From the NCBI GenBank assembly GCA_002633005.1, contig NMRA01000095.1, positions 906,518 through 961,204 on the forward strand: a DNA stretch of 54,687 nucleotides, read 5' to 3'. The stretch is from Phoronis australis (lineage: Eukaryota; Animalia; Phoronida). Each line of letters starts with the position of its first letter. The stretch's first letter is position 1. This document shows positions 19,024 through 51,230 of this stretch, piece after piece. The notes under the pieces are model-generated. The model was not told the DNA's origin and did not search any database. It saw only the letters and a list, made by a program, of their open reading frames with translations. Made by a program: the position numbers and the translations under genes.

Positions 19024-19112
19024 CTAATACCGCCGTAAACAGGCGGAAAAATGAAAAAGACAAGGTCCACCAAATAACACGCGGATAAACCCCAAAAGTG
19101 CAAAAACCAGCC

Positions 19113-23470: not shown

Positions 23471-24240
23471 TTACAGAATTTTCTTAGGATTCCCATGCAC
23501 ACGCAACCATTCCTTGATCTCTCTTCGCAATGCAAAACAAGGCTCGATTTCTTTATTCTCAAACGTTTTCTGGGTTGCTGGGGAGGTTTTATGTGTGCTC
23601 TGCCATTTCAAAATGGCAGAACGTTCATAGGTGTAACCATCACTTGCGCTAACTGGGTTCTTCATGATTTCTTGAGTCAATGCACACCGGAAATACGCAG
23701 GAACTTCGACGTCATGCCAAGCACGCTTAGCAGTGAGTTGGGATGACACGCTCGAATTCGACACGAGACTGGTGGTACTATTTGTTCGCTTTGTATCTTG
23801 TATTGGATCACCATCAGGATAGTCTGAGGAGATGTCGAAATCGTGTCCGCCTGTATTGATATTTTCTTGCTCGAGTCTCAAATTTGAAACTGGTTGTTGC
23901 GCGGGATTCACGAACATTACAGGATTCCTTGACTCCCCTTCGTCTTTTGTACTTATACAATCAAGTGAATCGTACACGTGTGCATCGTCTGCTTGGTGAT
24001 TTGACGATAAATGCCAGTAGGGATCTGAGTCATGCTTTAAATTTTGTCTTGAAAAAATCTTAGGTTGTGCTGAGCTAAGTTGACTGTACTCCTGTCTTGG
24101 ACCATGGTTAAGGTCTGAATCAAGATGCATGTACACGTTATTAGCGTATGATTCTCGCATTCTGGTATCCGGTATCTGCTCGTAGGGCTCCATTTGTTGA
24201 ATGCTGTTCATTATTTCTTTCGCTGGACCAAGAGGGATTT
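23471..24240 (-). CDS. Receptor terminal exon 21: SAM end, Tyr-rich linker, U-box domain
   Basis: VPAYFRCALTQEIMKNPVSASDGYTYERSAILKW...TSPAT...P.FALRREIKEW fits the U-box consensus. Confidence 0.9.
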
Positions 24241-27200
24241 CTGAAAATCGAAGTTTTCGGATGTTCTTACTCAAACAATTTTACTTTAAAGCACGCACGC
24301 AGGCACGCACACACGTGCAAATGCACACCTATACGTAAAAACGAAACGAGCAGAAGTTGTTTCAGTATAACGGAAAATTGAAGCAACGAGTATGCGTGGT
24401 AAGCGGTGTAACACATGGCGCAAAAATGCAATAAAACTTGATGTGAACCTAGGTTCGCGTCCGCCATGTGGCGCACTTGCTTTCTGGTTTGTTCCTGTTC
24501 AGGTACAACTTTATCTAGAATTAATTACGTAAGAATTCAAGTGAAGAAAACTTATGTCACAACATCCGCCGTGTCAAGATATTCCAAAAAGTTGGGGTTC
24601 ATAATGGAAACTCAAGATTTCGAGTTCAAATTCAAATTATAGCGTTAAGGATAGGGTCGTTAAGTGCAATCTAGAATCAAACAGTTATCCACGTGAGTCA
24701 TTATGCACTGGACCATAGAATAATTAACAATCATCTCGAGTTCGCACAAAACTGAGGATAGGTAAAAAATCGAGTTTCATCTCAAGTTAAAAGACTATAC
24801 CAAAGCCCAGAATTTGTTCCCGAGAGACATGCCGCCCTCTTTAGTGTAAAAGAAGACAGTTGTAAGGGAACCTTGCAAGCATCCAATGTTACAAACTTGT
24901 AAACGTTGGTCTGAATGATATCGAATGCGGCTTTAGCTTTTAAAGCTTTTAAAGAGACAGTCCTACTTACCCATTTACTAAAGCGAAAATTGTAAACAAC
25001 TTTGCGACTGCACATACACTCAGTCTTTTTGTGCTATATCCTAGCAGATCATTAAGGGAATTTACAAAGGAAACGAGAGTCCAAAAGTCAGCCGTTTCGA
25101 TTGTGCTGGCCAACCTATACAATAGCGGTGCACTTCATGCACTTGTCACGGTTGTTGCTTTCACGGCAGTTCACTTTGAGACCTTTTGAGAGAGGTGTTT
25201 ACCCATGATTCACGATTGTAATACAACCTTCAAAAGTGCAATACGAAGAGTCCCTACAAAGTCGGCTTAAGTGACAATTTGAATAAGCTGTCGGCGTGGA
25301 CGCAAGCAGACGATTTATGTAGAGTCACACCATACGCACTGTGGGATTTTAGTAAGGTTGTTTTGATAATTATTGCCTTGGTCCACTAAAGGCGGGTAGG
25401 TTAAATATGCATTAACATGTTAATAAAGTTAGTAAAACATAGTTTGGGTTAATATCACCCACATGGAGTTCAAAGTTCTTTTCATGGCCGACTGACTGTA
25501 CAGCTTCAAGCCATAGTGTATAGTGCCTCAGCAGCTTATTTCCAGTTTTAAGTTGGCAACAACTGATTCAGAATACTGTTCAGAGTTTGCAATGCTAAAT
25601 GAAAAAGCTGTGCCCCTAAGCGCAAACTCTATGGGACACTATGGGCTTATGTGACCTCACCTCAAAAGGTCAGATGATGCATGTACTACTAACCACGTTG
25701 AAGACTTACTGAGCTTATCCGTAAGATCGTCCTCCTTCAAAGTTTGCAGCGTATTGCTTGTTATTTCTTCCCGCTCGAAATTGGCAGCGAACCTCTCAAG
25801 ATTCAACCGCTTTAGGAATTCCAACACATCCTTGTCTGTACAAGAAAGAACAAATTAAATGTGCAAGAATTTTGACGGGTTTACCGATTTTTACCAATAA
25901 ATCGAACACTGAAACCGAAGCACACAATGTCTAAGGAGGCAATTAACGGTTCAACGACAGCTCGTATCATATTCACCTTTAACACCACGCTTTTAACTAG
26001 AGACATTGGACCAAAGTGTCATCTTAGTCAAATTTGCCGCATATCTAAATAAGCACACGTTCGGATAACGTTACACTGCTCACCCAATTTATGCGCTGTT
26101 TTCTTCCCAGTTTTTCGTTGGCGTTTTCTGTCAATAGGCTGCATTGCGTAACTATTTTCGTAGCGTCTATCAGTAGAAGCAACCTACAAACGGATGGACA
26201 TATGCATTAAGTCGTGGGTGAGCCATTCCATCCAGCATAATAAGTTAGTTGTTTGGCAGTTTAAAGGTGTGTACATGTACGTTGTCCATTAGTTAGGCGG
26301 GTTCATTAGCTCTGCTTTTGCGATAAACCATGAGACAATTTCAAGAAATGGCTCAGCAATACATTGCATCTGAAACGTAACGTTTTTCCAAAAATACCAA
26401 TGGGCGTACTTCCCGTCTTTAAGTCAACAGCGTTCGTATTTTACAAAATCTTAAGATCGTTCGTAATTTGACGATCATTCCTAGTTCTACAGGCGGGCCT
26501 TATAACTGAATAGTCAGTTTGATACACACTCTCTCTCGATGGTCAAATCACGATTACATAGACGAATGCATAGAAAAATTTACCAAAACGGCAATGCTAT
26601 TATTACAGCACTGATGAAATTTTGAATTAACAAAACTTCATTCGATGTACATATATGTCATGTATTGTGACCTCTTACTGTAACTGTATGCAGAGAAGTC
26701 GTTCTAACCATCCCATAGGTTTAAAGCACGTACCGTTACCCCGCTAAAACCGTCGTGGCTTGGCGTCGTTAAATCTGTATAATCCACAGTTGAATACTCT
26801 TGGCCACTCTGATACTTGCTTTGGTGAAACCTAAATCAAAGCTAGTTAATCTTACACGTGTATCCTATTATATTCTTACCTGCAACACTTGTGGAAAACA
26901 ACAAAACACCTTTTATTAAAATTGTCCAACTTAAGAAGTTACATCACAACCTTTCAAGACATGTTATGTTGCCTTACAAATCGCATGTAAAAGTTATATG
27001 GACCATAATGACCAAGGTTGGCTTTCTTCGGAACATCTTTTCTCATGTCACACGGTTAGGTACTATGCTTTATATACTGTTCTCAAAAATAAACTTAGGA
27101 TCTCTTTGTAAATGTTCCACATTTGCATGAGAGTCGAGTTAAACATAAACCAAATGATACTTTTGAAAACTGCAACGGTGTTTTTGATATCTCACCTTTA

Positions 27201-30200
27201 AAATTGAAATGAAAATTGATCTTGCATTTGAAGCTGTTGTTTTTCTATCAGTGAACCTTTCTTTTTTGCTAAATTTCTCTAAGACATGGTCACGTGACCC
27301 AATTAATGACAGACTGGTAAAAATTTAGAAATCAAATACTACAGGATTTCCCTTTTATTAGGTTTAAACCTTTTTTCTTAATGCATAGACATGCGGATAC
27401 GGTCCTACGTATTTTTAACAGTACGTGATGGTACACGTGGGAATTAAGAGCATCTGAAGAATCACACTCACTCACGTAATTCATATCTGATTTGTCAAGT
27501 TCCATACAGTGTAACTAACGTGAAATGTCAGCGCTACCGATCTCGTGTCTCCAAAATTGCCAAAGCGATACTTTGACGCTTAGGTAGAGTCTAAACTGAC
27601 CTGACCAACAGCTGCCGTCGATAACAGATTCCCAGCATCATCAGTAATAACACGGCTGCAGCAGTTGCACCTACCGCAGTACCTATGACGAGGTCATTTC
27701 CATTATCTGAAACAGAAATAAAGTGTTCATGTTTTAAAAAATTCCTCTTTATTACTTCAGCCCAGTGGTAAGACAAGAAAATAGTAGGCCAAGGATATTC
27801 ATGAATTGACTATTCATTGACTGAATTTCGGCTTGTCAGTGGTAATAAAAGTGGTATCTGGCATTCAGAAGGTGTTCTTTATATTCACCTAGTAATGGTG
27901 TTTGCGAGTGTGAGCAAAATATGGCACTGCGTCTATAAAAGCACGGGCTTGTGATGATAGTCGTAGATTGGACTGAACAAAACGTGGCGAAGGCATCTCT
28001 AAGCAGTCCAAAGTGTATTCAAAAAGAAAATTACTTGATGATAAGAAATCAGATGCCCATAACAAACACGATCACCATCAATCTCTTGACGATCATCATC
28101 AATCTCTTGATGTTCGATGCTCAAATGTGTTGAAATGTAAGCAATTACAGTTTCCATACCTTGCAATGTTACCGAAGTTTTCTGCTGACAACTCAATCGC
28201 TAATCAAATCAGAAGGCGTATTGGAGGAAAATTTTCCGACAATACACCCATGCCATTCATTCGAATAGAAACTTTCCATTTTTGAAATTATACTAGAAAT
28301 TACGTCACGGAATATTACTTCGCAAAAAATCCCGGGAAATTAAGTGACGACTGTAGTAATGACACGCCCGGGTGTATATTAGAGGAAACCAAATATACGG
28401 AGATACACGTCAGGGGTATGTCTTGGATTAAACTTTGATTCCCGAAAATGCCATTTTACATGAAACCATACATGTGCCGACGTTGTCTGCAGTCAACTTG
28501 CCTCTTTCGGTATCCGTACTCGTGTTTTCAAGTGCTGACGTCGTTTGTGCTGCAGTTAAGTCATTCTCAGTCGAAAATGTATCTTGACTAAAGACGGGAG
28601 TTGACAATTCGGTGACGATAGTGGCTTGTGGCGAATGCAGCGTAATGGAAGCAAGGGTCCCGTTTTCTTTTGGAGTGTTGCTATTACCTAGTGTGTGCAG
28701 CAGGTCTACAGCCGGTGTGGGTTGAATAAGCCAACTTGCGGGCGATTTTGTTGCAGAAACTCTACGAGATAAGCTTAGTCTTCGTATAGTTGATGTTAAA
28801 CTGTCCTCCAGTTCAATACTAGTTGGGCGAGACGCGCTAAGCCTTGAAGGATACGTCCATGTTGCTCTTTCGGTATCATCCGAGTTCATTTCAAGGAACG
28901 TACTTGATTCTTGGAAGGTTGTAACAATCATGATGTTAGGTGAGCTAGAAATAATTGAGTACTTTGATGATCCGTGTATATGGGCGGTCGTGCCGGCAGA
29001 TGGGGCTACTGTTTCAACTGATGCAGACGACGCTGCAAATTTCCATGAAGAACTACCCAACGACTTATCCCAGGAATCGTGGCGAATGCTTGTCTGTATG
29101 CCGTTTGTAACTGTCATAGTAGTGCCATCGAGTGAAGTGAGCGTATGTTCTGTTGATTCTACTCCTTTAGGTGACGGTTCGAACTGGTTTGTTGACTCAG
29201 TAACTAGGGTATTAAGCGCCGTTATTGAAGCAGAGTTCAGGGCAACATTGGACATCGTGAAGTCGGAACGCAGATCTCCACTTTTGCCGAGAGAAGAAGA
29301 TGGAAACGAGCTTGCACCAACATGGCTCGTGGGTATTCCTCCTCCCTCAATTGCAGAACTGGGTTGTGTATTTGGTGATAGAGTTGATTGCACGTTGAAA
29401 GTCACGTGGGATTGGTTTTCACGGACTGAGAAACTTGTGGCTGACTGTTGTCCTTCAACTGTGGATCCTTCAAGACTCGTGTGCATTTGTATTTCGATAA
29501 CAGAGGAACTTGTAGAAGTCCCCCGCGACTGGCCGCCGTCAACTGAGAAGCTAAATTTCGTTGTTTCGGCCGATGATGAGCTCCACGTTTGTGAAGATGA
29601 CGGCAAATATTGAAATGACGTCTCAATGCACGCTACGTTACATTTGCTGATAACACCACAGGTATTCAACTGCAAGAAAATAACGAGATCTATATTGACA
29701 TATTCAAGAGATTAAAGACGCCTTAGAAATAAACACTTACATGTAGCTAGAACATCCGGGCTATGGTATCTTGTCACGTGGTTTGATACTAAGTAATGTG
29801 TAACCTAATATTTACTCTTTTCTTCTCAGAAATCAGTCACTGATGGTTCGCAGAATTTAACCAACATTCTCCGTTTGAAAACCATTATGGACATTTTCTG
29901 GAAATGCCCTATAATACATAGGGCCTAAGCCACGAATCATTATACATCAACTTATCTTTTCACAAATTTCTCTTACGTCTGAATCATCTTAGTCTTCAGG
30001 CAGTTATACAGAATCTTACTCAATAGCATATTCGGCAAAGTTTAACTCACCTTCACGGTGCATGGCGGGTGTCTTCCTGTCGTGCAATCCATGCAGGTTG
30101 AGTCAAAGGGCACGACCTGGAGTGGCACACTTTGCGTGCGTCCATCATTACTAACAGAAACATCAAAGCCTAAGATATTACCATCAGCAACGTCTTTCGG

Positions 30201-33200
30201 TAAGATACAAACGACTCTGGCAAATGTTTCGAACACTGCCTCAGACGAAAACGTAGGCAACTGTGATGCATCAACTTCTGATGTCTGAAATTTGGAGAAA
30301 AAGTGGCTCACTTTTTCGCAAATTTACTGATGGGTGTCGACATCTCTCTACTTTCTTCATTTCAAACAACGTGATAAGTGTGTCATACATGTAAATGTAC
30401 GTACCGGCGTTTGCTTCAAACACACGCGGTTTTGCCAGAAACCATCTCAAACGCATAATTTAAAGATTTCATGCCTTGAAGAAACCGACTATGTCTTAAA
30501 GAACACATGAGCAAAACATTTTGTAACCTCCTTTCTACAGTAAGGTGATCTTGTTCGTAAAAGTAATCCACGATCTGTCAAAATGTCCTTCCAATTATGT
30601 CATTCAAGTTCGCACAGAACATTACGGGCCACGACAGGTGAAGGCGCGTAAATGAATGTAATCCCGTGTCGATAATGTGAATACGTCCATGCTAAAAGTA
30701 AATGCCCAGGTCAGTCTGGCGGTAAAAATATTGGGCAACTGGAATATCGGAGGCACAAACGACATTTTTGAAATTGTACAACTTGTTTGGTTTTTCGAGT
30801 CTTCCTCGCGGGGTCTTCAATAGCCTCATGACCCTGCCGAAAATTTCGCAGCTATAACCTCCACTTCCATCGTTTGCGTCTAGGAAGTATTTGGAGACTG
30901 ATCTAAATGTAAACTGGAGGGTCTCTTCACCGCATCCTGTTTTTAGTGAATAGCCAATGCCTGTCCGACAATGCTTTAATTTTACAAAACTTTTGTCGCG
31001 ACTTTGATTCAACATTCGTCTTTTTTCCTCAATCACCCAAGTACTTACCAGTCCAAAAGGTCTAAAATGACATGTGAGAGTTTTTGAATAGACGAAGTCG
31101 TAACCGACCACGAGAACAGCAGCACATGGCTCTTTGGTGACGTCACACAGTCCGCTCTTTGGGATGTAGTATGCACCAGGTGGCGTCATTGTTGATACAG
31201 AGCAGTCACTTCCAATGAAACCGTAATTGCATTGGCATGTTCCTGTAAAAGATAAATAAAACACTAGTGAAAAACTCTGGAGCCTGAACGCTAATATTCT
31301 ACCTATCACAAACGCATTCAAAATATGTTCACGAATTAAAAGCTCCTATTAAAATTCAGCGGGTGGAAATCCGTCACTTGGTTGGAATTAGTTAATGAGG
31401 CAATAGAACGTGTTAGCCAGCAATCTAGTCCGAGCATGTTAGTGCTAAAACTAGACCGCAGAAACGATGTTGTCGAGTCTACATTGTAGACTCGGCGGGT
31501 CAAGAATTCAACCCACTCTCAGAATCTCATGGCCCGTAGGAAATCTGGAATTGTACAAACAACGGAAGTGCCAACAACAAAATATGAAGAGCTACTTACT
31601 AACTAGCTTAGTGCAATTGTGAGTGCCGTCACTACCAGCGGTGCGACAAAGCAAGCTGTATGATTAGTTGACACAACTTTACTACTGACTAAGAAGTGCT
31701 CACGTGTCCGTGATAGTCACAATACTGGGACTAGACATGCTGTATCTGACAATTTTGTGATGCCTCAACACTAGAACTAATATTGTTTCGCAAACATTCT
31801 GTAAGGAACGAAACCTTTTGCTACAGCTAGAACATCAATTAGATTGGGTGTTTCAAAACTTTTATGCTAGTAATCGTCACTCCATTAGCCTCATCTGTAT
31901 ATACTTAATCATTATTTATGTGAATTATAGAAATTATAATTATTGTTAATTTTATTATATTTTGTTATCATTTTTATCATTGTGTTTGGTTGTTTGCTTG
32001 TTTTCAGAGGACCATGTGGTAGGTTGATACTAAACAAGTTTTATCATCTACAAATAAAATCACTTGTCTATCCATCTATACCATTTGGCACGTTTAAAGC
32101 TGTCGTACACTTTCACCGGTGGCTATGATCTGTGTAATGTTTTGAGTGCGAAACGATTGTACACAAACGCTCGTAGTTTGTGCTCACGAGTATTGAAGTA
32201 GAAATATCTCTTACCCTCAACACACTTGCCGTTACGCGTGCAATTGGATGGACACAAAACATCAGTAACGTCTTGAGGCAATGTCTGCCTATATCCACCG
32301 GAAGTTGGGTTAGAAACATTAATCCACGACGAAACATTTCGACGAAGTTCCAGCATACAATGCTGTTTCAAGGAGTCTGCAATAATGCTGGCTTTATTTA
32401 GATCACCTGTCATCTGAAATTAACAACATGTTGATTTCTTAAGTTAGCTAATATAGTACCAGCCTCGGAATACCACACAACAAACCCATGAAACTATATG
32501 AAGCAATAACGTCTGTAACACTAACATCTTACATGGCAGGGAAAGACGCGCTTCTTTTATACTTATCTCGGCATCTCGAAGTCCCGAGACAACTAAGTCG
32601 GGATTTTGCGATCCAGCGATAATTAAAAAGAAACGGTCGGTGTTTTTTCTCCGCCAAACAAAACAACCATGGAAGTGTAAGGCACTTTAACAGCTCCACA
32701 TGTAGGTTCCGACTGTGGTCCTTTATACACGTACGTCATCTCGTATACAGCAAAACACCAAAGGGACTTGTGAGTTGTGACACCTGACCACATGCTCACG
32801 CCTTCTCTGTATAATATTGTCAGAGTCCCAGTCGCAGGTTGTTGCAGATATTCTTTTATGTATCGGAAAACAGCAGTTGTCGTAGCCTCTTCGTCTATAG
32901 CTACACGTTATGTTGCAAGGAGTTACTTTACTAGCATAGAATTGGTATTGGCGTTTTATACAAATGTCAGTAACAATCGGAGACGAACGACTCTCACAGC
33001 ATTACATAGACACACTTAAGAATGTCTCGTGAGATTCCATACTATATTGGTACTGTTTCAGCAGAGTGTTGATAGAGCAACCAATGGTTCACCTCAGATA
33101 CAATAATTAGTAATACGTCATATAACCAATTCACATCATTTTAGAAAGTTTCGCGTCAGAATTAAGAAAACTCAGTACCCAGCAGGTAATTTGCCGGCGA

Positions 33201-36200: not shown

Positions 36201-39200
36201 ATGGAGTTGAGATGTTCCTACCACAACGGTGTCCACGTTCATGCAGCAGAAGAGACACTTCGGTGCTAGGAATGGAAATGATATTTTATCGTGTAACAAT
36301 AAACGAATGGAAGTCAAGGGAGCAGGTAATGCTGTTATCGTGCCAATGAGGGCGCTTTTCTTAAAATGAATCGGCTGGAAATTGAAAAGTCACGAAGAAA
36401 TTTATACGCAGAAAATCGAGCCCCACCAAGGCCTACTTGTAAATTTCATACTAATATACTATCATTCTAGAAATACACGACGGACAGAAATGTTTGATTA
36501 CGAACTGAAACGTTGTATTTTAAAGTTGTCTAAGTTCATGATTGCTTTCAGTCGGACTGTTGAAAGATAATAACGACTTCATGTGTTTCACAAGCTTGAG
36601 TGTAATCAAAACGCAAGAACCGAAAATAGTAAGACTCGTAATCTTGAAAGCTTTAAAACGATTAAACTGCACATGAGTTACATTTGCATTGAACGCTCTT
36701 GTGTATTTTGGATGTTCTCAACCGCCGTAACGTATTGGACAACTTACATGTAGCAATGAAACGCAGACTGGTGAAACGGTTCCATGTCGTGCATCTTAAT
36801 TAACAGTTTGGTCCTTTAAACCCCAAGGGCAAGGCGTGTGTCCTTGATAATGGATTTTGATAACCGCATAATAGGGATAATTTTCGGCCCGTTTTCGAAG
36901 TTCAAGAGCGTGTAGGATTCTAGGCATGTGTACCGCGGGTTTGGCTTCTGTGAGTCCTGGTGCGGAATGTAGAGGATGGTAACGGAAATTTAGACTCAGA
37001 ATGGTATGGGATCGTTTCCGCAAACTGAAACTACTTCCATTATACATGACATACTATCAAAGGCTAGACTTTCCACCAAAGCTCTGGGACGGATACGTAC
37101 CACAGACACTGCAAGGCCCCTTGCAGTCAACAATGCATTACGGTTACATGTATGGACCATGCAAGTAGTCTTGAAGTACAACTACAAAAAAGTTTCAACT
37201 ATCTCTACTTGGCTCACTGAAGTAGCGAATTTACACCATTTGCATTACCTGAATGATGTAATGAAATCCTTATATTCCCTTAATGGTGGTCTTTGGGTAT
37301 TCTCAGCCCTGATGCATTCATCTGCCTGACCAACAGAGGTCGTGGAACCCTTAGCACGCAGATCGTCCATGCAGTTCTTGTTAAACAGACCACATAGGCC
37401 TTCTGTTTGTTGCCAATCAAGTGTCGAAGGAAACATGAACACGCTCAGAGAGTCACCCACTGCAAGGACCTCGACATAGCCACCCGTTGGCAAGAATATC
37501 TAAAAAAGGACTTGCATTTTAGTGACAGTGTGAAACATATCTATAAATTGATATGAAATTTTGAAATGCTTTGCTTTATGCACTGTCCGCTATTTCAGAA
37601 ATAATTTTATTAAAATGGTTGACATTTTTGGAAGAGGAGCTATAGATAGAAAATTTAAGGAAAACATGCTCATTTAGAAAACTGTATCTGCGTTTTTGAT
37701 ATTTTTATACCATACATTATTTGCTCATGTTATTGATCATGTTGATTTGCTATGAAAATTCTTTTTTCTACTGAATTTTACTACATGAAGAATGCTCGCG
37801 TGACCAAACTTATGACGGATTCAAGTAAAGTTAAAAATCAAATTCTATGTAATTTCTACCTTTAGAAAATATCACCTTTTATTGAGTAAAATTTTATAGT
37901 TTTGAAGATAAGTTAGCTAATTGTGCAGCCTTATCGACCACGTTCTACATAAGCTTCAGTGTATGTATACATCGCGTTACGCTACGCTCACTATAACCCT
38001 AAATTGCTATTAAGATTTTTAACAGAAGAGACATCACTTCATTAACGCCACCTGGTGAATATCAAAGTTTCTAATTGTGGAACAGGTTTGAGAATGCATT
38101 TCGATCTGTTTAGCTCGCATTAAACAACTTCAGCTCATAAAACCGGCCTCATATGAGGCCTTACCATGGTGGGACTTTAGCTCCGTTACCAATGAGAACG
38201 GTAAAAACCATCATCAGATAGTGTGAGCTTTTTGTTCCGATAACTTATACTTTTACTCGAACACTGATGTTAAAAGAATAAGCAACAATTATCTTTAAAA
38301 TGTGTGTGAGATTTGACTTTAACTGCCACTTTTCCTAATCGAAAGTTGAAAATCTGTATTATTAATTTGAGTGATACTTAGTCGTTTAAGTGCCTTGATA
38401 GTTGATTTTTCAGATAAAGTGACAACTTCGACTTTTGAAAAGGACTAGGGTATGGTTACCGACCATTCACATTATATACAGTTGGTATAGTCTGATAGTA
38501 CCCACATTCTCATAAAAATATGTCAATAACGAGGTTTCAAAGAACTGAGTTGCTGAGCCAGGGTTGCTTACAGCAAGTGCATTGAATTTCAAAGCATCCC
38601 CGAACTCGGGCGCCGGCTCTTTGATCGAGAGTGAAAAACAGACGAGCTGGGTGTATAATTTTGTGGTTATTGTCAAAAGCCAAAGCTCTGATTAATAACA
38701 GATGTCACTTTATCCGAAAAAGCCACTATCAAGGTACTCAAACGAACAAGTATAACTCAAATTAATAAAAGAAAATACAAGTCTATCCGCCATTTTATAC
38801 GTAGAAAATTTTCATTTGCACCGTCTTACGACAATGTCGTAAACACCGATCACGTGGTGCTACAGGTAAAAGTAAAAGTTTATTAGAATCTCACACTCTC
38901 TACTCAAGAAAACGATTTAACTGTTTACGGGGTTGACCACCATGAAAATTAGGATGGGACGAATTTGGTAATGCTTACAATCCCAAAGTTCTTATGTTTA
39001 AAACTCAAAATTGAGGAATTATCAGCGGCGAAATTATCCATTAAAATTTGCATAAAAATGTAAAGTTATTGAATCACATTTGCTCAGTCAAAAGCGGAAA
39101 AAATCTTTTGTACTGTCTACCTCAGTATCGTATTCTTAAGTAGATCCATAACAGTACAAGGACTTTATAGATGACACAAACCCATTCCCGACTTCTACTA

Positions 39201-42200
39201 AGTTCAAGCAACCATGGAAAATATTAAACGCAATTAATGTTCAAGCATGGCCAATATTTCTTAAACTGGCATAATAACGGTTACATATACAGGCTGCAGG
39301 TAATTCTACCTTGGAATAAATACGGCAACTCTTCAATAAACGAGTCCATATTAAAACGTATAAATAGGGGCCTATTCGTCATGGTTTCACTTTTCAAACT
39401 GTGAGTCACCTCATAACCTCTGCCGTCATTCTTCTGCAGGAGTCTCAAACTGCCTTGTATGAAGTCACAACCTGTCTGGATCACCTTCAGTTGAGGCTTC
39501 CGGGAGGGATCGCTGACCGGAAGACACATATCAATCACGATGCCGTCGGTGGCCGACATTATGGCTACGGCGCATGTGCACGTTCTGCTAGAGCCACACT
39601 GGCGTTGAAAAACATTGATCTGAAGTATTTATGTAAAAGTTACAAATTCGTATCGACAAATAATTGGACTCAAAATATAGGCCAACTTTCACGGAACTGA
39701 AGTCATAAAATAAAACAACAGAAAAAACTCATGACTTGAAATTTTATTAAAATCTTATTTGTAGTCGAAAAAAACACAAATACGTGGCAATAAATACAGA
39801 ATTGGCTGAAGAAACCGATAACTGATGAGCACCTGTAATAGTATGATGGCTTATCAATTTGTTCCTAGAAAAACGAATTTCATTAATTAAACTAAGAGGT
39901 GTTGCAGGTGAACCAATAAAGTAAATATTACACCAAGTGCGTGCGTCGGACGGATTGTTACGCGAAGTTGTTGTACGCAGAATGAACAAACTTTATTCGT
40001 CAAAGATTGATGTTATTGAGGTGTGCATAATTTTTTCAATTCAAAATTATTCTATTCAGTTCATATAAAGAATGTTTTTTTAACAGGCTAAACATAGGCA
40101 ATATGCGTCACTTAATTTCCTCGTTCTTTATTCGCCGTGTATTTATTCGCATTATGAGCCCACAACGTCAAGAAACGACAATGTTGATTAAAAATTTCCA
40201 AAACTCGTATGAATAGCGGTAACGCTTAAATCAAAACAAGGAAATAAAATAGCCAAAGTGTCGACAAGAACGCCTGCGCAAATAAAAACCGCTTTAAGAA
40301 TGAACAAAAGCCTAATGCAAACATTCAACCATTGTGTAACAGCTTGAATAATACGGGGTCTGAAGAACTGACCTTTTGAATTTCATTGAAAGTACTTAAG
40401 GAAATAAACGCTCACCTGAAAGGCTCTTTTCTTGTTTCTGTATAGAATGAATTCACCTTCTTCTCGTGCTAAATATATGCTGCAAAAATTTCAAAAGCAC
40501 CAATGAGGAAATACACTAAAACAGATGGGACAGCATTAAAATACTGTTGACATACGTCTTCAGGAACCCAAGGAATCTAATACGACGCCCTTAGGATTGA
40601 AATATAACCAAATATACGTAAACCAAGTATTTTATTATAATGTTCAGATATAATTGTGAGAAAAGTGGAATCCATCAGTTATCTTATAATGAGGATGGTT
40701 TCATGATTGAATTTAGAGTTTTAGATACTACCAGGAAGACATTCGTCGTGGTAATACTTGCAAAGGATTTTAAATCTGCCGTCAAGTTTATAAAATGGAC
40801 ATTTAAGGGTGTTGAGCATAGTGGCCACTGTCACTGAATTTGCTGAAATTTGTATTACACATGTTCCTGGCGTTTTTGAAAAAGAAACAGAAATCCAAAG
40901 AAAGCCAAATTAAAGTCACGTAAATTGCTAAAAAAACGTCTGGGCTTCATGCTTGCTATTCAATGCTGCAAATGGTACAGGGACCAAGTACTCAAATTCA
41001 CATTAAAAATAAAAATTTATACGCAAACAAAGACACTGAGGTTATGACTTTAAATTGGCACAGATTCGTCACTGTTCTCCCTACTCACGCTTAACGGTAA
41101 GATACTGTGACTGGGTGCGCATCAGTCTGATCCAGGTACTAAACTGTCGGCTCTACCATGTTTGTAACCCTTTCGTGACCATAAGACTGGGCAAAAATAT
41201 GTTGTCAGTGTTTTCAGTGTTTTTAATTGGTCCTTGAGCACTCGTGTCTCTGTTGCCATGTTAGTGCGTCGAATATACTGTAGGCGCATGGGATTAGAGA
41301 GGCGCATACTTGTACATATACACTGTAAAGATGAATGTCCTAAGCTCATTATCAATTGTTATCCATGGAACTCTGCATTACAACAATCTGCGTTAAGTTA
41401 CATGTCTACGTATGTACTGAGTTGTGAAGTCAAACTACATTAACCCACATGTAGGTGAGCATGAGTGAGAAATTTTATATTCAAAATGTTTCCTGAGCTA
41501 ACATGATTTACTTACTGTCCATCAAACGTAGTGACAAAGGAGCCCGGTAAGATTTCACATCTACTCGCGCTCATTTCAAGATCTTTATCCACAATTGTTA
41601 CCTGCAGTAAAACGATAAATATACGTAAGACAGACAAAAGCCTACTTCGGTTTCGTGCACATTTTCACGGCGAAGTGCGCGTCTGCTTATTATCTACAGT
41701 AGGAGACATGAGAAACGAATAACTTTGAAACCCTAGTATGCACCTACCGAGCCGTGAGCGCAATGGTACATAACGCAACCTATTAGGTAAATTTTTCAAC
41801 CACAAAATAGACCACGAGTTGTGCTGGGGTGACGGAACTGAGATCGCAATGAATTCTCCCTGACTGCAATTAGGAACACATTTTAGCAAACACAGCAACC
41901 GGACTCATACCATCAGAAATACTTTTTTATGTTCGATGTCGATTCGTAGATCTCACAAAAGGCTAATTTGAATTAACTGAGAAACAGCTACTTGGTATAA
42001 ACATTTGTACGCGCTTAAAAAGCAAGATTCTCAGCTGACTAAGTGTAGGTTTTCCAAAATTTATCTCTTGGAAATGCATTTTACGAGGCCCACTGTCCCC
42101 AACTGTACGCCCTGGCTTGCAGAAAAAATCTAAGAACATTTTGACTCGACAAAAATGTACAGGTCTACGGAAATCACTGACCTGGAACGACTCCTTGTAC

Positions 42201-45200
42201 CCTTTCCACGCGTCATGAATGATTCCCAGTGGATCGGTTGTTATTCTCACGGTAGCTACCTGTTCTTTGTCATATTTTCCATCTACGCTTGCAGCAAGCT
42301 TGAACGTCAACATTGTCTCAATGTTTTCTGCTTTGGGTTTGAACACGATGCCGCAGCTGCCTTCTACGGTCACCTGCGGAATGGAAGTTCCATCAAGGCA
42401 CGTACTAGGGTGTTCGTCCACTTCTACAGTAATTGTAGCGTCACAATCGCCTTCACAGTTTCTTACTGCTATAATCGGCACGGTTGGAGTGAGGTGAATT
42501 GATGTAAAGGAGTTTTCGTCGATTCTGAAATCCCAGGCTCGGACTCTGAGTCCCGCATAATAAGGCTTGCTGTCCATACGCTTTGCTACTGGACCTCCCG
42601 GGTAACTTCCATTAAGACTGCAGAATATCTGAAAGTACAATAGTTTTGTTTATTATTTGTAATCCGGACTGAGTGTATTTTGCATAGTAACTCAATAATA
42701 TCTTCACGAGTACATCACTAGTCAAATATACATGTACAATTTTAACAGTCAATGCCTAATGCATCAGTACTTGAAAAAATGTTGTCACGTCCGCGTGGCT
42801 GGCCATTATTTGGGGAATACCCAATACACCCTATTTAGTTGAAAAGTACCTGGAATCCTAATGTCTGTCCTTTGTCTGCCCAATCAGATTCGTGGAGAAC
42901 CGACTTACGTAGCCCACGGGACAATCTCTCAGACTTTACTTTGACGTCATTGATGAACCAATCAACATCAAAAACAATGTTTGTATCATGGGGATCATAA
43001 CTGTTGTCACAATGAAACTGTATTTCATTGGTTTTACCGTCACGTGGTCGAACTCCTTTCGTAGCTGTCAGTTGTGGTATTGGGGTGAAGACGTCTTCAA
43101 GTAAAATAATAAAATTTGGAAAGTATCAAGATGAGAACAACAGACGAATCCAGGATGTAGCGAGGGTTGAATACTGGCCAAAATTTTTATATAATGAATG
43201 TTCGCTTGACACAAAAGCAGCACACTGTGGCTGATTTATAATGGTAAGCTCCCGTTGCATCACGTCCTAAACCCGTCTTTGAGACCTCTGTGCAGTTTTC
43301 AGAACATTTCCTCCTATCATACAATTTTTGTAAAAACGTATCTTAACTTTCCACTTCAGAGATCAACAAGGGTTTGTAACGGCTTCCTCGGTAACTCTTT
43401 TCTACCATAAAATCCCCAGCTGAGCGTTGCCATACTGTAACTTGTACTTATAAACTTTCACTTTTTTCAAACATGTTAACACTAAATCCTGCACAATAAT
43501 TGTCCTAGGGGTGTAATAAACCGAAATCTGCGACAGACTCAATGAAGTCGCGAAAACGCAAGATCACATTGTACGCTGGAGCTCACGGATATTGCAATTA
43601 ATTCGAAGTGAAACACGTGACCGCTCCATCTTTACTCGCTACACGTAATTCTTTGAGTCCACGCAAAAGGACCTTGGTTTATACACGTTTCCAAATTTTC
43701 AGTGAAGTCAGTGCTTACAAACCCACCGTCGGACAAAGTTTTGCAGTGGGTAATTTACCGCGAATGTCTCGTCGGCCTTTTAAAATATTACATCATTTGA
43801 AAACGTCTCACCTTTACACTGAGGCTTTGTAGCGTTAGGTGGTAGACATTGCTGTGGCAATTCTGCGGGAAATAAATTGAGGGTCATAATTCAAAAGGAG
43901 CAAACAAAATGAATAATTGCATCATCTAAAATGGCGAAAGACGCGGCTCCCGTCACAAAAAAACAGTTTGATTTAAATCACTTCTTGTTATGAAACTGGC
44001 CTGAAATTGCTTAGTAGTGAAATTGGAGGTGATTTCGGGTCACCAAAACAACTGACAGATCGTTATTGGTTGAGACCAGACTCTACAAACTGGCTTGTTG
44101 CAGCGTGTCATTTCATGTGCAGAGCATACAAGGAACAACGAGCTGCCAGTTCAATACAAACGCAACAACCACTTCCCATTTGAATTGAGAATGTTGTGAG
44201 CAATTTCATAGCGGTGAATGTTATTGTCAATACTATTGACAACTTCCAAAGAAAAAATGACAAATAAGTATTGTGTTTGTTTCGATTTATTTGCTTCTGT
44301 AATCATGGTGCTTAGAGTACCGAAGCACTTACTGTCTCCTATACAGTAACCAACAGGGCAGCCAGTGGGTCTCTGAAGCTTGTACACAAAGTAGTCTCCA
44401 CAGTTCTTCACTTTGATGTCGTGTAGTTCCGAACAACACCACGTCTGTCCTCCGGCGCAAAGTGAGCAGTCGAATAATGAGCCGGTAACACAGGCTCGTC
44501 TGTCAACAATGCCCTCCAACGGTGTCGGATTATCACCTAGATTACAAAATAGAGTACAAAAAGCAAATATTACAACCTGAATGAAAAAAGTAAACTGATG
44601 AAAACATGTGTGGTCAGCGGTCATTAGTCCAAGCCTACAGCAAGTACGCCGGCATCGTTTAATGGCGTATCAGTTCGGTTGACTGTTTCTATCGTTGCTC
44701 ATTTCATGTCATCCTTGTATACACCTCGGTCCATCTGTCCTTTTCATGTTTTATTTCTATAAATCAACTTAGTCCATAAGGGCTATTTCTAGTATTTTAA
44801 AAGGACAAAGCTGCAGATTAGCATTTTTGTTTCACATGTTTGTATTTCTCATCCAATCTCTGTAAATAAAGTATGTAATTACTGTTGTTGCGATTATGAT
44901 TGCGATTACGATTACCTTTATCTTTATCATTATCATCATCATTATTATTGCTATACAGGTCTCTACGATGTTTTATAAATTGCACCTGTCGTTAGGTATG
45001 TATATGATCCAAACTGACATTATGGGGGAGAAATATCATTTTCTGAGTTCACCACCGGTGCACACAGTCGGACCTTCTACAATCAAGTCACAGAAAAACA
45101 CTTCTGGAGGAGATAATTCACAGGGCATACTTACATGTAGAAGGTTATTCTAAGGGAAATTAATTCGTAAAGTCTCCCGCCTTGATTTCAGTAAATATTT

Positions 45201-48200
45201 AATAGACAGTGGCGATTTGAAACTCTGAGTAAAACTAAAAGCTTCAACAGACAATCCAACAAAAAAACAGAAATACGTTTTTGGCCCTAAAGGCAACAAA
45301 CAATGTCTCTAATTTAATGGTGAACACGCGTTGCATATTTCAAAAATAATACCTCTCGTACACCGGGAATGTATTTTTAGAAACAAATAATTATTACGAC
45401 CCACCTCCTCATTAGTCGCCTCATAAACGGGTAGCTATTTACCTTTTGCAACCATTCTGCTATTTAGAACACGCAGTCCTAAACGGCTGAAACAACGTAC
45501 CCAAGAGCCATGCAGTATACTTTGTGCCACAGTGGTACGTCTCGACACATCTGTTGACCATAGCCGAGCCCGTACTGGCGTGAAAGTAGTACCAACCATC
45601 GTTTAAATTACGGTCGCACGTCAGAGATCCATGTGGGAAAGACATGTTGGCACTGCGGTAGATGTGACCGTCAAGTTCCACACGATTTCTCCTCTCACAC
45701 GGATCTTCATCTCCACCTTGTGAACATCAAATATTCAGTGATAATTTTTAGAACCAGATCGCCTCCTGAAAACTACATATTTCAAAAACACAGCAAAAAG
45801 AACCATTACACCAAAAAACATAGAGCAAAAAGTCAGGGTAACACGGAGAACAATAATCGACTGCGCGGTGAATGAGTTATCACCACAGCTTTAAAAACAC
45901 TGAATTGATGTTTTGGTTCAGTCACTCTTAGTCGCTGAGTTGCTTTTTAAGTGTTGGGTCTTTGCATCTGTTTGTGTTGTGTTCTTGAACTATGCTGGTT
46001 GCACGATTGTTTACAATACTTTGGCTAAGAACTAGGCGTTACTAAACTGGACACTTTGCTACTAGCCCGTCTGCTATATCACGCCAAATCTAACAACTGT
46101 TTTTAAGTCTCTTGTGCACTACAAAATAGTTGGTGTTTCTGACAACGTGCATGTACTGGTGAAATATTTCGTAACTTTTCCTTCGACTGCTATATTATGG
46201 TCTCAGTCGACTCGTACACGACAACGAACACCATTAATTACGTAAATTTATTATTCATTATAATTATACATAGCAGAATGCAATACAATACAATACAAAC
46301 CAATATAATACAAAAACTATATACCCTGTACGTAGACAGAGGCATCGAGGGCCGAAGGGGGCACAGGTGCAACACCTGGCCCAAAGCTTACATACATATA
46401 TACAAGCTCCCCTGACCCCCTTTAAATGGACACGGTCATCAGTAAAAACAAAATTATTCTGGCTCTTCACTTCTCTTAGAGAGTCAAATAGGACCCACTA
46501 GTCCCACTAGTAATAGCCAACAAATCCACAAATGTGGCTTTGCTTCTTACAGTAGTTATACAGTAGTCAGTATATTTAGCTACACAAGTGTGTCTTGGAT
46601 TTTCTTTCTAGGTCTTTTAGTTCAAGAAATCTGCTGTCAAATGTTAAGACGTTAACAATTCGTGAAAAAAAGGGAAATCTTGATTTTTAACATCCGTGTT
46701 CTCGGGTTAAAAAGGATTGATTTGGAAATGCCAGAAAAAGTCGGTAGGTGACAAAATAAAGAAAAGGTGTTTGCCAGTTTCATGTGAAAAAACGTGTTTA
46801 TGGAAAATTCAATATTCTCTGTGAAAAATGACGTTGAGGAAACACAATGGTACTACTTTTAAGCATATAAGATGACCGTTTGGTCGTAAAAGATATTAAC
46901 AATTAATAGTTGAATGGGTCTACTTTCAACGCTAAGAATGGTATTTAAAAGTTCCTTCACTGCCATCTTAAGCACGCAGGTAGCAGTAAATCCTCACAAA
47001 AATTTCAAAAAACTGGACCAACTTGGTTCAACAATGGCTGTTGAATGTGAAAAATTCAACTAAATGATTTCGAGGCATCCTATTATAAAAATAAAGCTTA
47101 TTTCTGTAAAAAACTTAGATAAGAGAGAGACTTCTAGTTCTGAATCTGTGTCGAGACTTAATACATTTCGGGGTCCTATCATCAACATCTTCAAACTGAA
47201 ACCGGAGGGCTCAAACCCCAGAGGGAATATAACGTTGCCATTTCACAGTTTTTATCTCACATCCAGGATCTCTGAACTAAGAAGGGCCCCGAATAACACT
47301 CTGGACGTAACTGAACGTAAAACGCGCGTTTTTGGCTACTGTTGTTGTTTCAGTGGCGCAGCACTAAACAACGGGAAGGCACGGAGGGTAGAACTGTTCA
47401 CAATGATCAGGACTGACTGTACTTCGGGAGCAAGTTTTCTGTTATACAGAATTTGTTGAATACACGACACTTTTCATTTTTCACGGTCTTTATTCCGTTG
47501 CGTTCATACTTTCTGAACAAAACTCTACTCTCTACTGAACATAGATACAGTAACTGACCTAGCGGCATAATTAAAAAGACACACGATATTTCGAAACATA
47601 CTTGTTTCATTCTCAAGTGAAGATAAAATGACGCAGTAATGCCACCACAGAGTATAAGCTGACGACACACACAGTGAGACACGGAGGTTGTGAAATACTG
47701 CAAAGAATGACTAAAGAATTAGGGTAACAGGAAAGTCACGCAAACAAGTGTAACGTGCGGCGCGACCCTGTTTGCTGCTCAAGAGGGCGTATTCGGTGTC
47801 GTCTAACTGGCTATTGTTCAATCAAGAGGTAGATCGCATAAGACAAACACTGGTGAATAATGGGTATACCAATGCTTTCGTGGACTTCCATATTAAGCGA
47901 TTTATGTCCAGAATTAGCTATGAAGTCCCTGCACGTCGGACTGGTGTCACCAAAAAGATATTTTACAAAAATGTCATGTCTAATAATTACCTCCAGGACG
48001 AACACGCCATTAAGAAAATCATAAGGGACAACGTTAAAGTTTGTAAGCCTGATGATTACCTTGATGTTATTATTTATTATCGGAATAGGAAGTCCTCCAA
48101 CTTGGTCATGAAAAATAACATTTCTAAAGCGAAAGTCCGCCCCGTTGCACAGTGTAGTGTTGTTTATGAATTTGTATGCCCTATGAATGAATGTCTTCGT

Positions 48201-48906
48201 TCAAACGTCAAACAATGTTACATTGGTCAAACGGTTTGCAGTCTTTCCCGTCGGTTATCCATGCATCTTCAAAATGGCGCCATTCAAGATCATTTTCTGC
48301 AATACCACGCACGTAAAATCACCCGTCAAGAAATTGTGGAAAACACGTCAATTCGCTACGTGGAGCAAGATGTGCTGCGTTTGAAAGTATTAGAGTCCCT
48401 TTTAATTGCTTTTGAGAAGCCTATTTTGAATGAGCAGCAAACAGGGTCGCGCCGCACGTTACACTTGTTTGCGTGACTTTCCTGTTACCCTAATTCTTTA
48501 GTCATTCTTTGCAGTATTTCACACCCGCCGTGTCTCACTGTGTGTGTCGTCAGCTTATACTCTGTGGTGGCATTACTGCGTCATTTTATCTTCACTTGAG
48601 AATGAAACAAGTATGTTTCGAAATATCGTGTGTCTTTTTAATTATGTCGCTAGGTCAGTTACTGTATCTATGTTCAGTAGAGAGTAGAGTTTTGTTCAGA
48701 AAGTATGAACGCAACGGAATAAAGACCGTGAAAAATGAAAAGTGTCGTGTATTCAACAAATTCTGTATAATGATCAGGACGTAAAGTATTTGGTTAGGCT
48801 AGTCTTGAAAATGTTTACAAAATGCAAACTTACTTGCCAACATTCTTGTGCTGTCGAACACGTATAGTACCAATACGACGCACGCTAGTCTCGTACTTAA
48901 TGTCAT
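23471..48906 (-). CDS. VWDE-like type I membrane protein with D8C, VWD, EGF, mucin stalk, TM, SAM and U-box domains (21 exons, ~1760 aa)
   Basis: Exons: 48906-48834, 45716-45501, 44536-44333, 43862-43812, 43094-42850, 42628-42182, 41601-41516, 40479-40416, 39619-39410, 37499-37249, 34932-34644, 33799-33644, 32413-32215, 31242-31049, 30284-30051, 29669-28502 (or 28472), 27706-27601, 26830-26740, 26183-26084, 25835-25710, 24240-23471. Every junction is phase-compatible and I saw no internal stops. Confidence 0.82.
25710..25835 (-). CDS. Receptor exon 20, SAM domain (not in the ORF track)
   Basis: DVLEFLKRLNLERFAANFEREEITSNTLQTLKEDDLTDKL; donor A|GTAAGT. The domain is completed by KIPLGPAKEIMNSI in the next exon. 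Confidence 0.85.
26084..26183 (-). CDS. Receptor exon 19, cytoplasmic
   Basis: gtag|VASTDRRYENSYAMQPIDRKRQRKTGKKTAHKL G|GTGAGC; phase 0-1. Confidence 0.65.
26740..26830 (-). CDS. Receptor exon 18, juxtamembrane cytoplasmic
   Basis: ttag|G FHQSKYQSGQEYSTVDYTDLTTPSHDGFSG|GT; phase 2-0. Confidence 0.65.
27601..27706 (-). CDS. Receptor exon 17, transmembrane helix
   Basis: LVIGTAVGATAAAVLLLMMLGICY followed by an RR stop-transfer signal. Confidence 0.87.
28502..29669 (-). CDS. Receptor exon 16, Ser/Thr-rich mucin-like stalk
   Basis: About 390 codons, open and S/T-rich. The donor is either AG|GCAAGT (28502) or T|GTATGG (28472); both are phase 1. Confidence 0.82.
30051..30284 (-). CDS. Receptor exon 15
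   Basis: VVCILP...VSVSNDG..S...FDSTCMDC...CTVK. Confidence 0.9.
31049..31242 (-). CDS. Receptor exon 14, EGF end and VWDE Ig-like segment
   Basis: TCQCNYGFIGSDCS...GLCD...C..V.V.G.DF....LTCHF. Confidence 0.9.
32215..32413 (-). CDS. Receptor exon 13, start of EGF-like domain
   Basis: MTGD...C..ELRRN...LCPSNCTRNGKCVEG. Confidence 0.88.
33644..33799 (-). CDS. Receptor exon 12
   Basis: WPLRSGLTEAETRRAC...C...CVE matches the VWDE WPTxSGxT motif. Confidence 0.88.
34222..34292 (-). mobile_element. Degenerate tRNA-derived sequence (SINE head or tRNA pseudogene)
   Basis: GGCAGTGTGGCCTGGTTGA (A-box-like) ... GAGGTCGTGGGTTGAAGTCCCAC (T-arm/B-box-like). Confidence 0.5.
34644..34932 (-). CDS. Receptor exon 11
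   Basis: SLY...YCNC...C...RMRRS; phase 2-0. Confidence 0.85.
37249..37499 (-). CDS. Receptor exon 10, end of VWD
   Basis: IFLPTGGYVEV...PSTLDWQQTEGLCGLFN...DD...FITSFR. Confidence 0.9.
38359..38768. mobile_element. MITE-like element with ~68-bp imperfect terminal inverted repeats
   Basis: TATTAATTTGAGTGATACT...CCTTGATAGT...GATAAAGTGACA is mirrored at 38701-38768. Confidence 0.75.
39410..39619 (-). CDS. Receptor exon 9, VWD
   Basis: INVFQRQCGSSRTCTCAVAI...IVIDMC...GRGYE. Confidence 0.87.
40416..40479 (-). CDS. Receptor exon 8, VWD
   Basis: GEFILYRNKKRAFQ; phase 2-0. Confidence 0.85.
41516..41601 (-). CDS. Receptor exon 7, start of VWD domain
   Basis: VTIVDKD...RCEILPGSFVTTFDG; donor GTAAGT. 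Confidence 0.85.
42182..42628 (-). CDS. Receptor exon 6
   Basis: IFCS...SKPYYAGLRV...TVPI...DGKYD...WKGY; phase 0-0. Confidence 0.88.
42850..43094 (-). CDS. Receptor exon 5 (not in the ORF track)
   Basis: P.L...IQFHC...FDVDWFIND...LHESDW...LGFQ, a VWDE-type Ig-like segment; phase 1-0. Confidence 0.8.
43812..43862 (-). CDS. Receptor exon 4 (51-nt linker exon)
   Basis: cgcag|..LPQQCLPPNATKPQCK G|GTGAGA, phase 1-1. Confidence 0.6.
44333..44536 (-). CDS. Receptor exon 3, D8C domain, second half
   Basis: GDNPTPLEGIVDRRAC...CC...IKVKNCGDYFVYKL..P.GC..GYC. Confidence 0.9.
45501..45716 (-). CDS. Receptor exon 2, UMOD/GP2/OIT3-type D8C domain, first half
   Basis: DPC...YRS...CDRNLNDGWYYF...MVNRCVETYHCGTKYTAWL. 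Confidence 0.88.
47582..47619 (-). ncRNA. Second copy of the minimal hammerhead motif in the inverted pLTR
   Basis: Exact reverse complement of 48593-48630. Confidence 0.68.
47782..48476 (+). CDS. PLE ORF C-terminal fragment: RT thumb and GIY-YIG endonuclease
   Basis: RAY..SS.W..F..E..RI.Q.L.NNGY; VVYEFVCPMNEC...YIGQT..L.RRL..H...H...H...LESLLI...P.LN. There is no true start codon because the element is truncated. Confidence 0.9.
48593..48630 (+). ncRNA. Minimal type I hammerhead ribozyme motif (U3-A8 variant) in PLE pLTR
   Basis: CAC-UUGAGAA-U-GAAACA(AGUA)UGUUUC-GAAA-UA-UC-GUG. Confidence 0.7.
48834..48906 (-). CDS. Receptor exon 1, signal peptide
   Basis: MTLSTRLACVVLVLYVFDSTRMLA then A|GTAAGT, phase 1. 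Confidence 0.7.
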
Positions 48907-51073: not shown

Positions 51074-51230
51074 TGACGTCATCGAACGTGAAAATAGAAT
51101 ACTTAAATGAGCACGCGCAACAATCGCATGTTCAGCAAAGGGCACTGCACCTACAATTATACGCTATGAAAAATAAGACGCATAATTTCCATAACAACGA
51201 TATTTTAATTCAGTGAAATTTTTCTCTCAT

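Follow-up and report, generated by a model that had tools for sequence, protein, structure and literature searches.

Animal U-box ubiquitin ligases have been surveyed as seven conserved genes, and the word 'transmembrane' does not occur in the accessible text of that survey (PMC3087547). The same text describes WDSUB1 (WD40-SAM-U-box), SAM and U-box sequences or fragments without WD40 in sponges, and a lineage-specific Nematostella protein, Nv_UBOXa. Receptor-type ligases such as ZNRF3/RNF43, GRAIL/RNF128 and MEGF8-MOSMO-MGRN1 are described, in a recent structural paper, as type I single-pass membrane systems with a cytoplasmic domain, a RING, that binds the ubiquitin-conjugating enzyme (E2) (PMC12458338). 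In PMC9117669, VWDE counts as a secreted protein that has EGF repeats, and its N-terminal module, formerly D8C and redefined as D10C, has been aligned with those of GP2 and uromodulin (UMOD) (PMC8930769). Here we describe a gene of Phoronis australis that is predicted to combine a VWDE-like ectodomain, one transmembrane (TM) helix, a SAM domain and a C-terminal U-box in a single polypeptide. It lies on the minus strand of a window of 54,687 nucleotides (nt), the whole stretch of DNA that was analysed (assembly GCA_002633005.1, contig NMRA01000095.1, positions 906,518 to 961,204), and all coordinates below are those of the window.

The predicted protein resembles VWDE in having an N-terminal D10C module, probably followed by VWD and EGF regions. 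VWDE is described as secreted and ending in EGF repeats, however, whereas here a single EGF-like repeat is followed by a mucin-like stalk, a TM helix and a cytoplasmic tail of ~370 amino acids (aa), and we therefore rejected membership of the VWDE group. As in WDSUB1, a SAM domain precedes a C-terminal U-box, but the Phoronis protein appears to be membrane-anchored and has a ~160-aa spacer between the two domains; membership of the WDSUB1 group was rejected because no WD40 match was found in the 20 exons scanned by Pfam (all but exon 4, of 17 aa). With ZNRF3/RNF43, GRAIL/RNF128 and MEGF8-MOSMO-MGRN1 it shares a type I single-pass topology and a cytoplasmic E2-binding domain, both of them predicted in its case. 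In those systems the RING lies near the membrane; here the U-box is ~290 aa away, a SAM domain intervenes and the ectodomain is far larger. ZNRF3, RNF43 and GRAIL carry a PA ectodomain. RNF43-type membership was rejected in turn, the protein having a U-box, D8C and VWD instead of a RING and a PA ectodomain. The protein stands outside the VWDE, WDSUB1 and RNF43 groups, but would work most like the RNF43 group. It also recalls the plant OsCERK1-OsCIE1 pair, in which a U-box ligase is coupled to a surface receptor, except that receptor kinase and plant U-box protein (PUB) are separate there, whereas here a single chain without a kinase domain would hold both functions.

On the minus strand, 21 exons joined by coordinates form one frame of 5316 nt (1771 aa), from an ATG at 48906 to a stop that ends at 23471 and is the only one in the frame. 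All 20 introns (221-3117 nt) can be read as GT..AG, and all phases match. Two donors compete for the end of exon 16. The GC site at 28502 reaches a score of 8.6, and the donors used for training span 5.2-10.6; the GT site at 28472 reaches 0.8 and was dropped for that reason. The model with the GC donor has 1761 aa, and thus bears out the ~1760-aa frame of 21 phase-compatible exons proposed in an earlier reading of this DNA from sequence alone (hereafter the first-pass annotation). For exon 1, 57 candidates running from an ATG to a phase-1 donor were compared upstream of exon 2, and the best was chosen (donor score 9.5, hydrophobic core 3.16); an alternative first exon at 47610 was dropped, as it sits inside a repeat in intron 1. 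Exon 1 is nevertheless the least secure exon, being beside that repeat and without unique RNA support. The features of the gene are:

Exon 1, 48834..48906, minus strand: ATG and predicted signal peptide
Exon 2, 45501..45716, minus strand: hairpin and first half of a GP2/uromodulin D10C (D8C) decoy-type module; sequon N48
Exon 3, 44333..44536, minus strand: second half of D10C/D8C
Exon 4, 43812..43862, minus strand: short Cys/Pro linker; phase 1/1, strong splice sites
Exon 5, 42850..43094, minus strand: ectodomain segment, open and phase-compatible; no Pfam match
Exon 6, 42182..42628, minus strand: ectodomain segment, probably beta-rich
Exon 7, 41516..41601, minus strand: likely start of VWD; no Pfam match alone
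Exon 8, 40416..40479, minus strand: likely VWD; phase 2/0 fit, no Pfam match
Exon 9, 39410..39619, minus strand: likely VWD; phase fit, no Pfam match alone
Exon 10, 37249..37499, minus strand: C-terminal part of VWD; PF00094 and FCGBP matches
Exon 11, 34644..34932, minus strand: Cys-containing segment after VWD; phase fit
Exon 12, 33644..33799, minus strand: Cys-containing segment; phase fit, minus-strand RNA in its bin
Exon 13, 32215..32413, minus strand: ends in first half of an EGF-like repeat (Cys spacing)
Exon 14, 31049..31242, minus strand: remaining half of the EGF-like repeat plus a Cys-rich segment
Exon 15, 30051..30284, minus strand: membrane-distal segment before the stalk; phase fit, no Pfam match
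Exon 16, 28472..29669, minus strand: Ser/Thr-rich mucin-like stalk; probably ends at 28502 (GC donor)
Exon 17, 27601..27706, minus strand: TM helix and basic stop-transfer residues
Exon 18, 26734..26830, minus strand: cytoplasmic segment next to the membrane, two YxxPhi motifs; spliced reads confirm its 3' end
Exon 19, 26084..26183, minus strand: cytoplasmic, rich in Lys/Arg ahead of SAM; spliced reads confirm its 5' end
Exon 20, 25710..25835, minus strand: SAM domain, profile positions 7-44 of 64
Exon 21, 23471..24240, minus strand: last SAM helix, ~160-aa linker with Tyr motifs, U-box (about 23500-23710), stop
Likely 3' untranslated region (UTR), 22560..23470, minus strand: polyadenylation hexamer at 22565, the only one in 22300-23470; minus-strand reads across 22600-23527
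Repeat in intron 1, 47442..48770, strand not applicable: 340-bp inverted repeats, 99% identical, around a GIY-YIG-like frame; outside the protein

Pfam scans were made exon by exon, which weakens domains that span introns. In exon 21 the U-box scores 64.2 bits against a cut-off of 21.4 (E 1.2e-17), and in exon 20 SAM_1 scores 30.0 bits against a cut-off of 23 (E 7e-7), with SAM_2 at E 2.4e-6. The U-box structure model has a predicted local distance difference test score (pLDDT) of 91 (47 sequences) and matches the U-boxes of OsCIE1, GmPUB13, UBE4B and CHIP at 1.3-2.3 Å (7xed, 7c96, 3l1z and 2c2l), the first two being the best structural matches; AtPUB14 is also among the fold matches. All five invariant positions of the 47-sequence alignment are kept. 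A Trp and a Pro, which we take to face the E2, are both retained as well. A Thr of this U-box aligns with OsCIE1 Ser237, whose phosphorylation blocks E2 binding and so acts as a phospho-switch (PMC13261658). The domain is likely to have ubiquitin ligase (E3) activity.

SAM and U-box are linked by the way in which the SAM domain is divided. The Pfam match in exon 20 stops short of the end of the profile, and exon 21 begins with the last SAM helix, which is read in the same frame as the U-box. The exon 21 helix aligns with the SAM end of a homologue, P0128, and only one of 5000 shuffles aligned as well (p 0.0002). Because intron 20 cuts through the SAM domain, SAM and U-box should belong to one protein, a link that the sequence makes close to certain.

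To follow the frame upstream from there we used RNA and splice-site scores. RNA came from three raw-read runs with the same species label (X1-X3), about 18-19% of each being used; reads of a further run, X4, fall essentially only on repeats. Spliced junctions were listed only at three or more reads, and depth was too low for most junctions. At intron 18, the predicted junction 26734/26183 is crossed precisely by three X1 reads, which leave out 550 nt and cover 66 nt or more to either side. The first-pass annotation had proposed the path 27601->26830->26183->25835->24240 through the tail; this one step has spliced reads, and none of the others appears at the three-read threshold. In X1-X3, several ectodomain exons, stalk, tail exons and 3' UTR are covered on the minus strand at about 0.1-2x, a low level that is similar for ectodomain and tail. 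Examples are exon 3 (1.63 in X2), the exon 12 bin (0.65 in X1, 0.34 in X3), exon 13 (X1 and X3) and exons 16 and 21 (all three runs). The TM-exon bin is confounded by a repeat. Intron-only bins are mostly empty, one that is not being 34664-35591 in X3; several bins with exons likewise lack reads.

Splice sites were then scored with a matrix for which only introns 2-15 served as training set, and ranked among 1708 GT sites and 1425 AG sites. Donors of introns 17, 18, 19 and 20 fall in the top 0.2%, 0.8%, 2.5% and 5.6%, and their acceptors in the top 14.5% (a middling rank), 7.4%, 1.3% and 0.8%, respectively; the acceptor of exon 17 (intron 16) is in the top 0.6%. A 96-nt stretch of intron is stop-free 15% of the time (0.153), and an untranslated exon 18 would thus match both frame and phase by chance in about 5% of cases (0.153 x 1/3). 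The splice from TM exon to tail would complete a single long transcript, which we regard as very probable. For one polypeptide that holds ectodomain, TM helix, SAM and U-box, the support from sequence is good and that from RNA partial.

The order predicted from sequence is signal peptide, GP2/uromodulin D10C, VWD, EGF, Ser/Thr-rich stalk, one TM helix, SAM and U-box. An N-terminal D10C/D8C module is present, as in VWDE: exon 2 matches GP2 (7p6r) at E 5e-5 and uromodulin at E 0.01, and exon 3 matches D8C_UMOD (PF23283) at 22.6 bits (E 1.2e-4, below the cut-off of 27) and has GP2 as its top PDB match (E 0.3). A probable VWD shows in exon 10, which matches PF00094 at 21.5 bits against a cut-off of 22.9 (E 3.3e-4, profile positions 116-152) in a domain split over four singly scanned exons, and which also matches the FCGBP VWD at E 2e-4 and MUC5B weakly. 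The VWD of the first-pass annotation is thus probable for exon 10, while its extension over exons 7-9 is suggested by motifs and was confirmed by no tool. On inspection, the VWD lacks a GDPH-type self-cleavage motif. Exon 14 has a weak EGF_alliinase match (E 0.04). Exon 6 had no match in Pfam, word-based protein or Atlas searches, and its single-sequence structure model is not reliable (pLDDT 41.6). The annotated order of D8C, EGF, stalk, TM, SAM and U-box held up, but an Ig-like label given to exons 5, 6 and 15 found no match with any tool. The stalk (Ser/Thr-rich at residues ~1000-1370) has 26-39% Ser plus Thr per 100 aa and is almost without Cys. The only strongly hydrophobic segment lies beyond it, at residues ~1376-1402 (KD19 reaching 2.26); marginal peaks (1.64) occur at residues 7 and 479. 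Exon 17 matches TM_ErbB1 at E 0.011. From hydropathy and exon order we predict a type I protein that crosses the membrane once and has its ligase domain in the cytoplasm.

The 289 aa between TM helix and U-box comprise a Lys/Arg patch ahead of the SAM domain and, after it, the disordered ~160-aa spacer. Of 12 tyrosines, seven lie in YxxPhi motifs against 2.5 expected (20000 shuffles, p 0.004; the motif was picked post hoc). YxxPhi motifs serve in endocytic sorting or SH2 docking, and here they may act as endocytic or phospho-tyrosine signals.

These features suggest how a probable receptor-type U-box E3 could work. The Ser/Thr-rich stalk would lift the D10C/VWD head, ligand binding at the head would bring receptors together by way of SAM, and the U-boxes, once clustered, would ubiquitinate the receptor and neighbouring surface proteins for uptake and breakdown. 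This would be akin to the action of ZNRF3/RNF43, with a U-box replacing the RING and a SAM domain added. Surface location, SAM self-association, E3 activity and substrates are each conjectural in this scheme. Of the first-pass annotation's reading, the receptor-type U-box ligase remains the best account, supported by the open frame, the SAM-U-box link and the intron 18 reads, whereas the lack of animal precedent that it implied does not hold (see below). Tagging for uptake and breakdown, specifically, we consider about evenly balanced.

The same protein could instead be a signalling receptor, whose phosphorylated tyrosine tail docks SH2 proteins and whose U-box builds non-degradative K63-type chains as a scaffold, much as TRAF6 and ACT1 are scaffolds below immune receptors. 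The seven YxxPhi motifs across the tail (p about 0.004) exceed the need for sorting alone, and one tail tyrosine motif fits what we take to be the pattern of an immunoreceptor tyrosine-based inhibitory motif. The spacings of tyrosine pairs, 15-17 residues, do not suit a canonical immunoreceptor tyrosine-based activation motif. On the extracellular side, the anthozoan TM-U-box proteins discussed below carry scavenger-receptor domains, and the D10C of GP2 and uromodulin presents a high-mannose glycan to bacterial FimH (PMC8930769); the N-glycan sequon of exon 2 (N48), however, is off the aligned place of GP2 N65. We regard this signalling role as possible but doubtful.

Several observations weigh against the receptor-type ligase. 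With its ~160 aa, the disordered spacer might keep the U-box at a distance from the membrane, whereas the RINGs of receptor-type ligases are membrane-proximal (PMC12458338). No orthologue was found in the searches described below, which leaves the fusion without support from conservation. The U-box itself departs from consensus, with Ala for Pro (Pro in 38/46 homologues), Leu for Ile (Ile in 44/46), Gln for Leu/Phe after the Trp, Cys for Asn (Asn in 38/46) and, after the SPxT motif, a Gln seen in 0/46 homologues though present in solved plant U-boxes. Only one of the 20 junctions (intron 18) is listed, introns 16, 17, 19 and 20 having none at the three-read threshold in these partial runs at ~0.1-2x depth. 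If intron 17 is left unspliced, the frame stops a few codons past the TM helix, and two polyadenylation hexamers lie within that intron.

The four to five consensus departures would fit a degenerate U-box, used for dimerisation or partner binding only in an adhesion or matrix receptor, and two of them lie in what we take to be the first E2-binding loop. This is unlikely given the Pfam score of 64 bits against a cut-off of 21.4, the confident fold, the retained Trp and Pro, and the fact that the Ala, Leu and Cys changes each occur in 2/46 homologues. A shade less likely still are two transcripts or genes, one for a VWDE-like membrane protein whose short tail ends in intron 17, the other for a soluble protein of SAM and U-box that is made from exons 18-21 and starts at the Met in exon 19: the missing reads across intron 17, its early stop and hexamers, and the sponge SAM and U-box sequences without WD40 (PMC3087547) would suit them, but among six donors tested in the tail and at the ends that of the TM exon scores highest, exon 18 is open, matches in phase and bears Tyr motifs of receptor-tail type, and only 770 nt would have to hold both a 3' end and a promoter. 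A minor short isoform may accompany the long one.

Returning to the receptor-type ligase, we searched for relatives of the whole protein and of its parts. No protein with a VWDE-like, SAM and U-box layout was found, in searches that also missed ordinary VWDE and WDSUB1 and so are insensitive to animal proteins. A word-based protein search with exon 21 gave four matches among 796 candidates, one of them P0002 (described below); exon 6 gave 0 of 368 and exon 14 0 of 2, and no ordinary VWDE was returned. HMMER against representatives gave 9124 matches at E <=0.001, with no close relative among the best 150. In the 83 of these 150 scanned with Pfam there was no VWD, no D8C and no WD40-SAM-U-box protein, and SAM occurred in one, P0128. 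A BLAST comparison of the model with 154 collected proteins gave no match upstream of residue 1616. Upstream of its U-box, the model was likewise unmatched in all 71 metagenome loci. The Atlas search returned generic U-box clusters. In the literature, covered largely without subscription papers and bioRxiv supplements, no paper was found that deals with a VWD-SAM-U-box protein, or with single-pass U-box ligases of animals in their own right.

Single-pass U-box proteins do exist in other animals, contrary to what the first-pass annotation implied (the Acropora rows tabulated by Neubauer et al. in PMC5119243; an Actinostola protein). The last, P0002 (KAK3713138.1, a one-member cluster), has MAM, SRCR, LDLa, WSC and CUB domains, a TM helix at ~1546 and a C-terminal U-box. 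In PMC5119243 (2016), 2 of the 17 SRCR+CUB rows shown have a MAM/SRCR/CUB-TM-UBOX plan, both from Acropora (A. digitifera aug_v2a.03894.t2 and A. millepora c000424), one with a transcriptome-style identifier; the available passages treat these proteins as scavenger-receptor-like and contain no ligase discussion. The anthozoan proteins are thus on record as domain lists. Because anthozoan proteins with a TM helix and a C-terminal U-box exist, this layout in Phoronis is not a one-off gene-model artefact. Like the Phoronis protein, they have a large ectodomain, one TM helix, a disordered Tyr-containing tail and a C-terminal U-box, but their ectodomain is wholly different, the Phoronis exons having no SRCR, MAM or CUB, and P0002 has no SAM match. 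The U-boxes of the Phoronis protein and P0002 share an exact run of 12 residues, the longest among 154 proteins (next 11). They are 43% identical (rank 69 of 146), and in a U-box tree (66 rows, 73 columns) with 31 of 63 forks open they paired in 0% of 200 bootstrap trees; one shared U-box origin with the anthozoan proteins would still be compatible with these data. The combination of a VWDE-like ectodomain with SAM and U-box was found nowhere else in our searches, insensitive as they are to animal proteins, while the idea of TM plus U-box has anthozoan precedent. Two other proteins, P0030 and P0011, have a long N-terminal region, one TM helix and two C-terminal U-boxes, and are further membrane-anchored U-box cases. 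In the PMC5119243 supplement, two Aiptasia proteins join SRCR-FN3-CUB to VWD-EGF, evidence that in anemones VWD-EGF blocks are shuffled onto scavenger-type ectodomains.

The surrounding DNA is rich in repeats and holds a second gene. The repeat frame in intron 1 weakly matches GIY_YIG_2 (E 0.0016), has many multi-copy reads on both strands and is presumably Penelope-like. Short multi-copy repeats with many reads lie at 34060-34300 (intron 11) and 27240-27320 (intron 17); by eye, we take the former to be tRNA-derived, like a short interspersed element. Plus-strand RNA at 35592-37800 and 39202-40135 runs antisense over exons 9 and 10 and their introns, reaching about 10x in X1 and X2, where it exceeds the sense gene, and being absent in X3; the longest plus-strand frame tested there had no Pfam match. 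Downstream of the U-box gene, at about 4400-16000 on the minus strand, is a glycosyltransferase family 8 gene (PF01501), which we assume resembles glucoside xylosyltransferase. Its likely first exon is included in a 2-kb direct duplication (14377-16382 and 17055-19027, 94% identity) that has the window's only N at its join (17054) and may represent two haplotypes assembled in tandem. Matches to zf-RVT at 20050-20385 and 11345-11647 mark ends of non-LTR (long terminal repeat) retroelements. At 51200-54687, units of about 1.15-1.2 kb that are 85-88% identical and contain sub-repeats follow one another in tandem, and the array runs past the window end. The CpG observed/expected ratio is 0.90, in keeping with an invertebrate-like animal genome.

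A tentative wider view is that invertebrates have an unrecognised class of single-chain receptor U-box ligases that arose more than once, each time with a Tyr-rich tail and a U-box behind another recognition ectodomain, which is SRCR/MAM/CUB in the coral and anemone proteins and D10C/VWD in the Phoronis gene, here with a SAM polymer switch besides. If this is true, capture of microbes or matrix by a head of glycan-decoy type would trigger ubiquitination directly, and the protein would do in one animal chain what receptor-PUB modules do in plants. A receptor that unites SAM and U-box in a single chain would widen the lists of both animal U-box and receptor-type ligases, and would offer a compact system in which to ask whether clustering alone switches on a ligase. 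It points to overlooked invertebrate surface ligases that may act in microbe handling, wound or matrix signalling.

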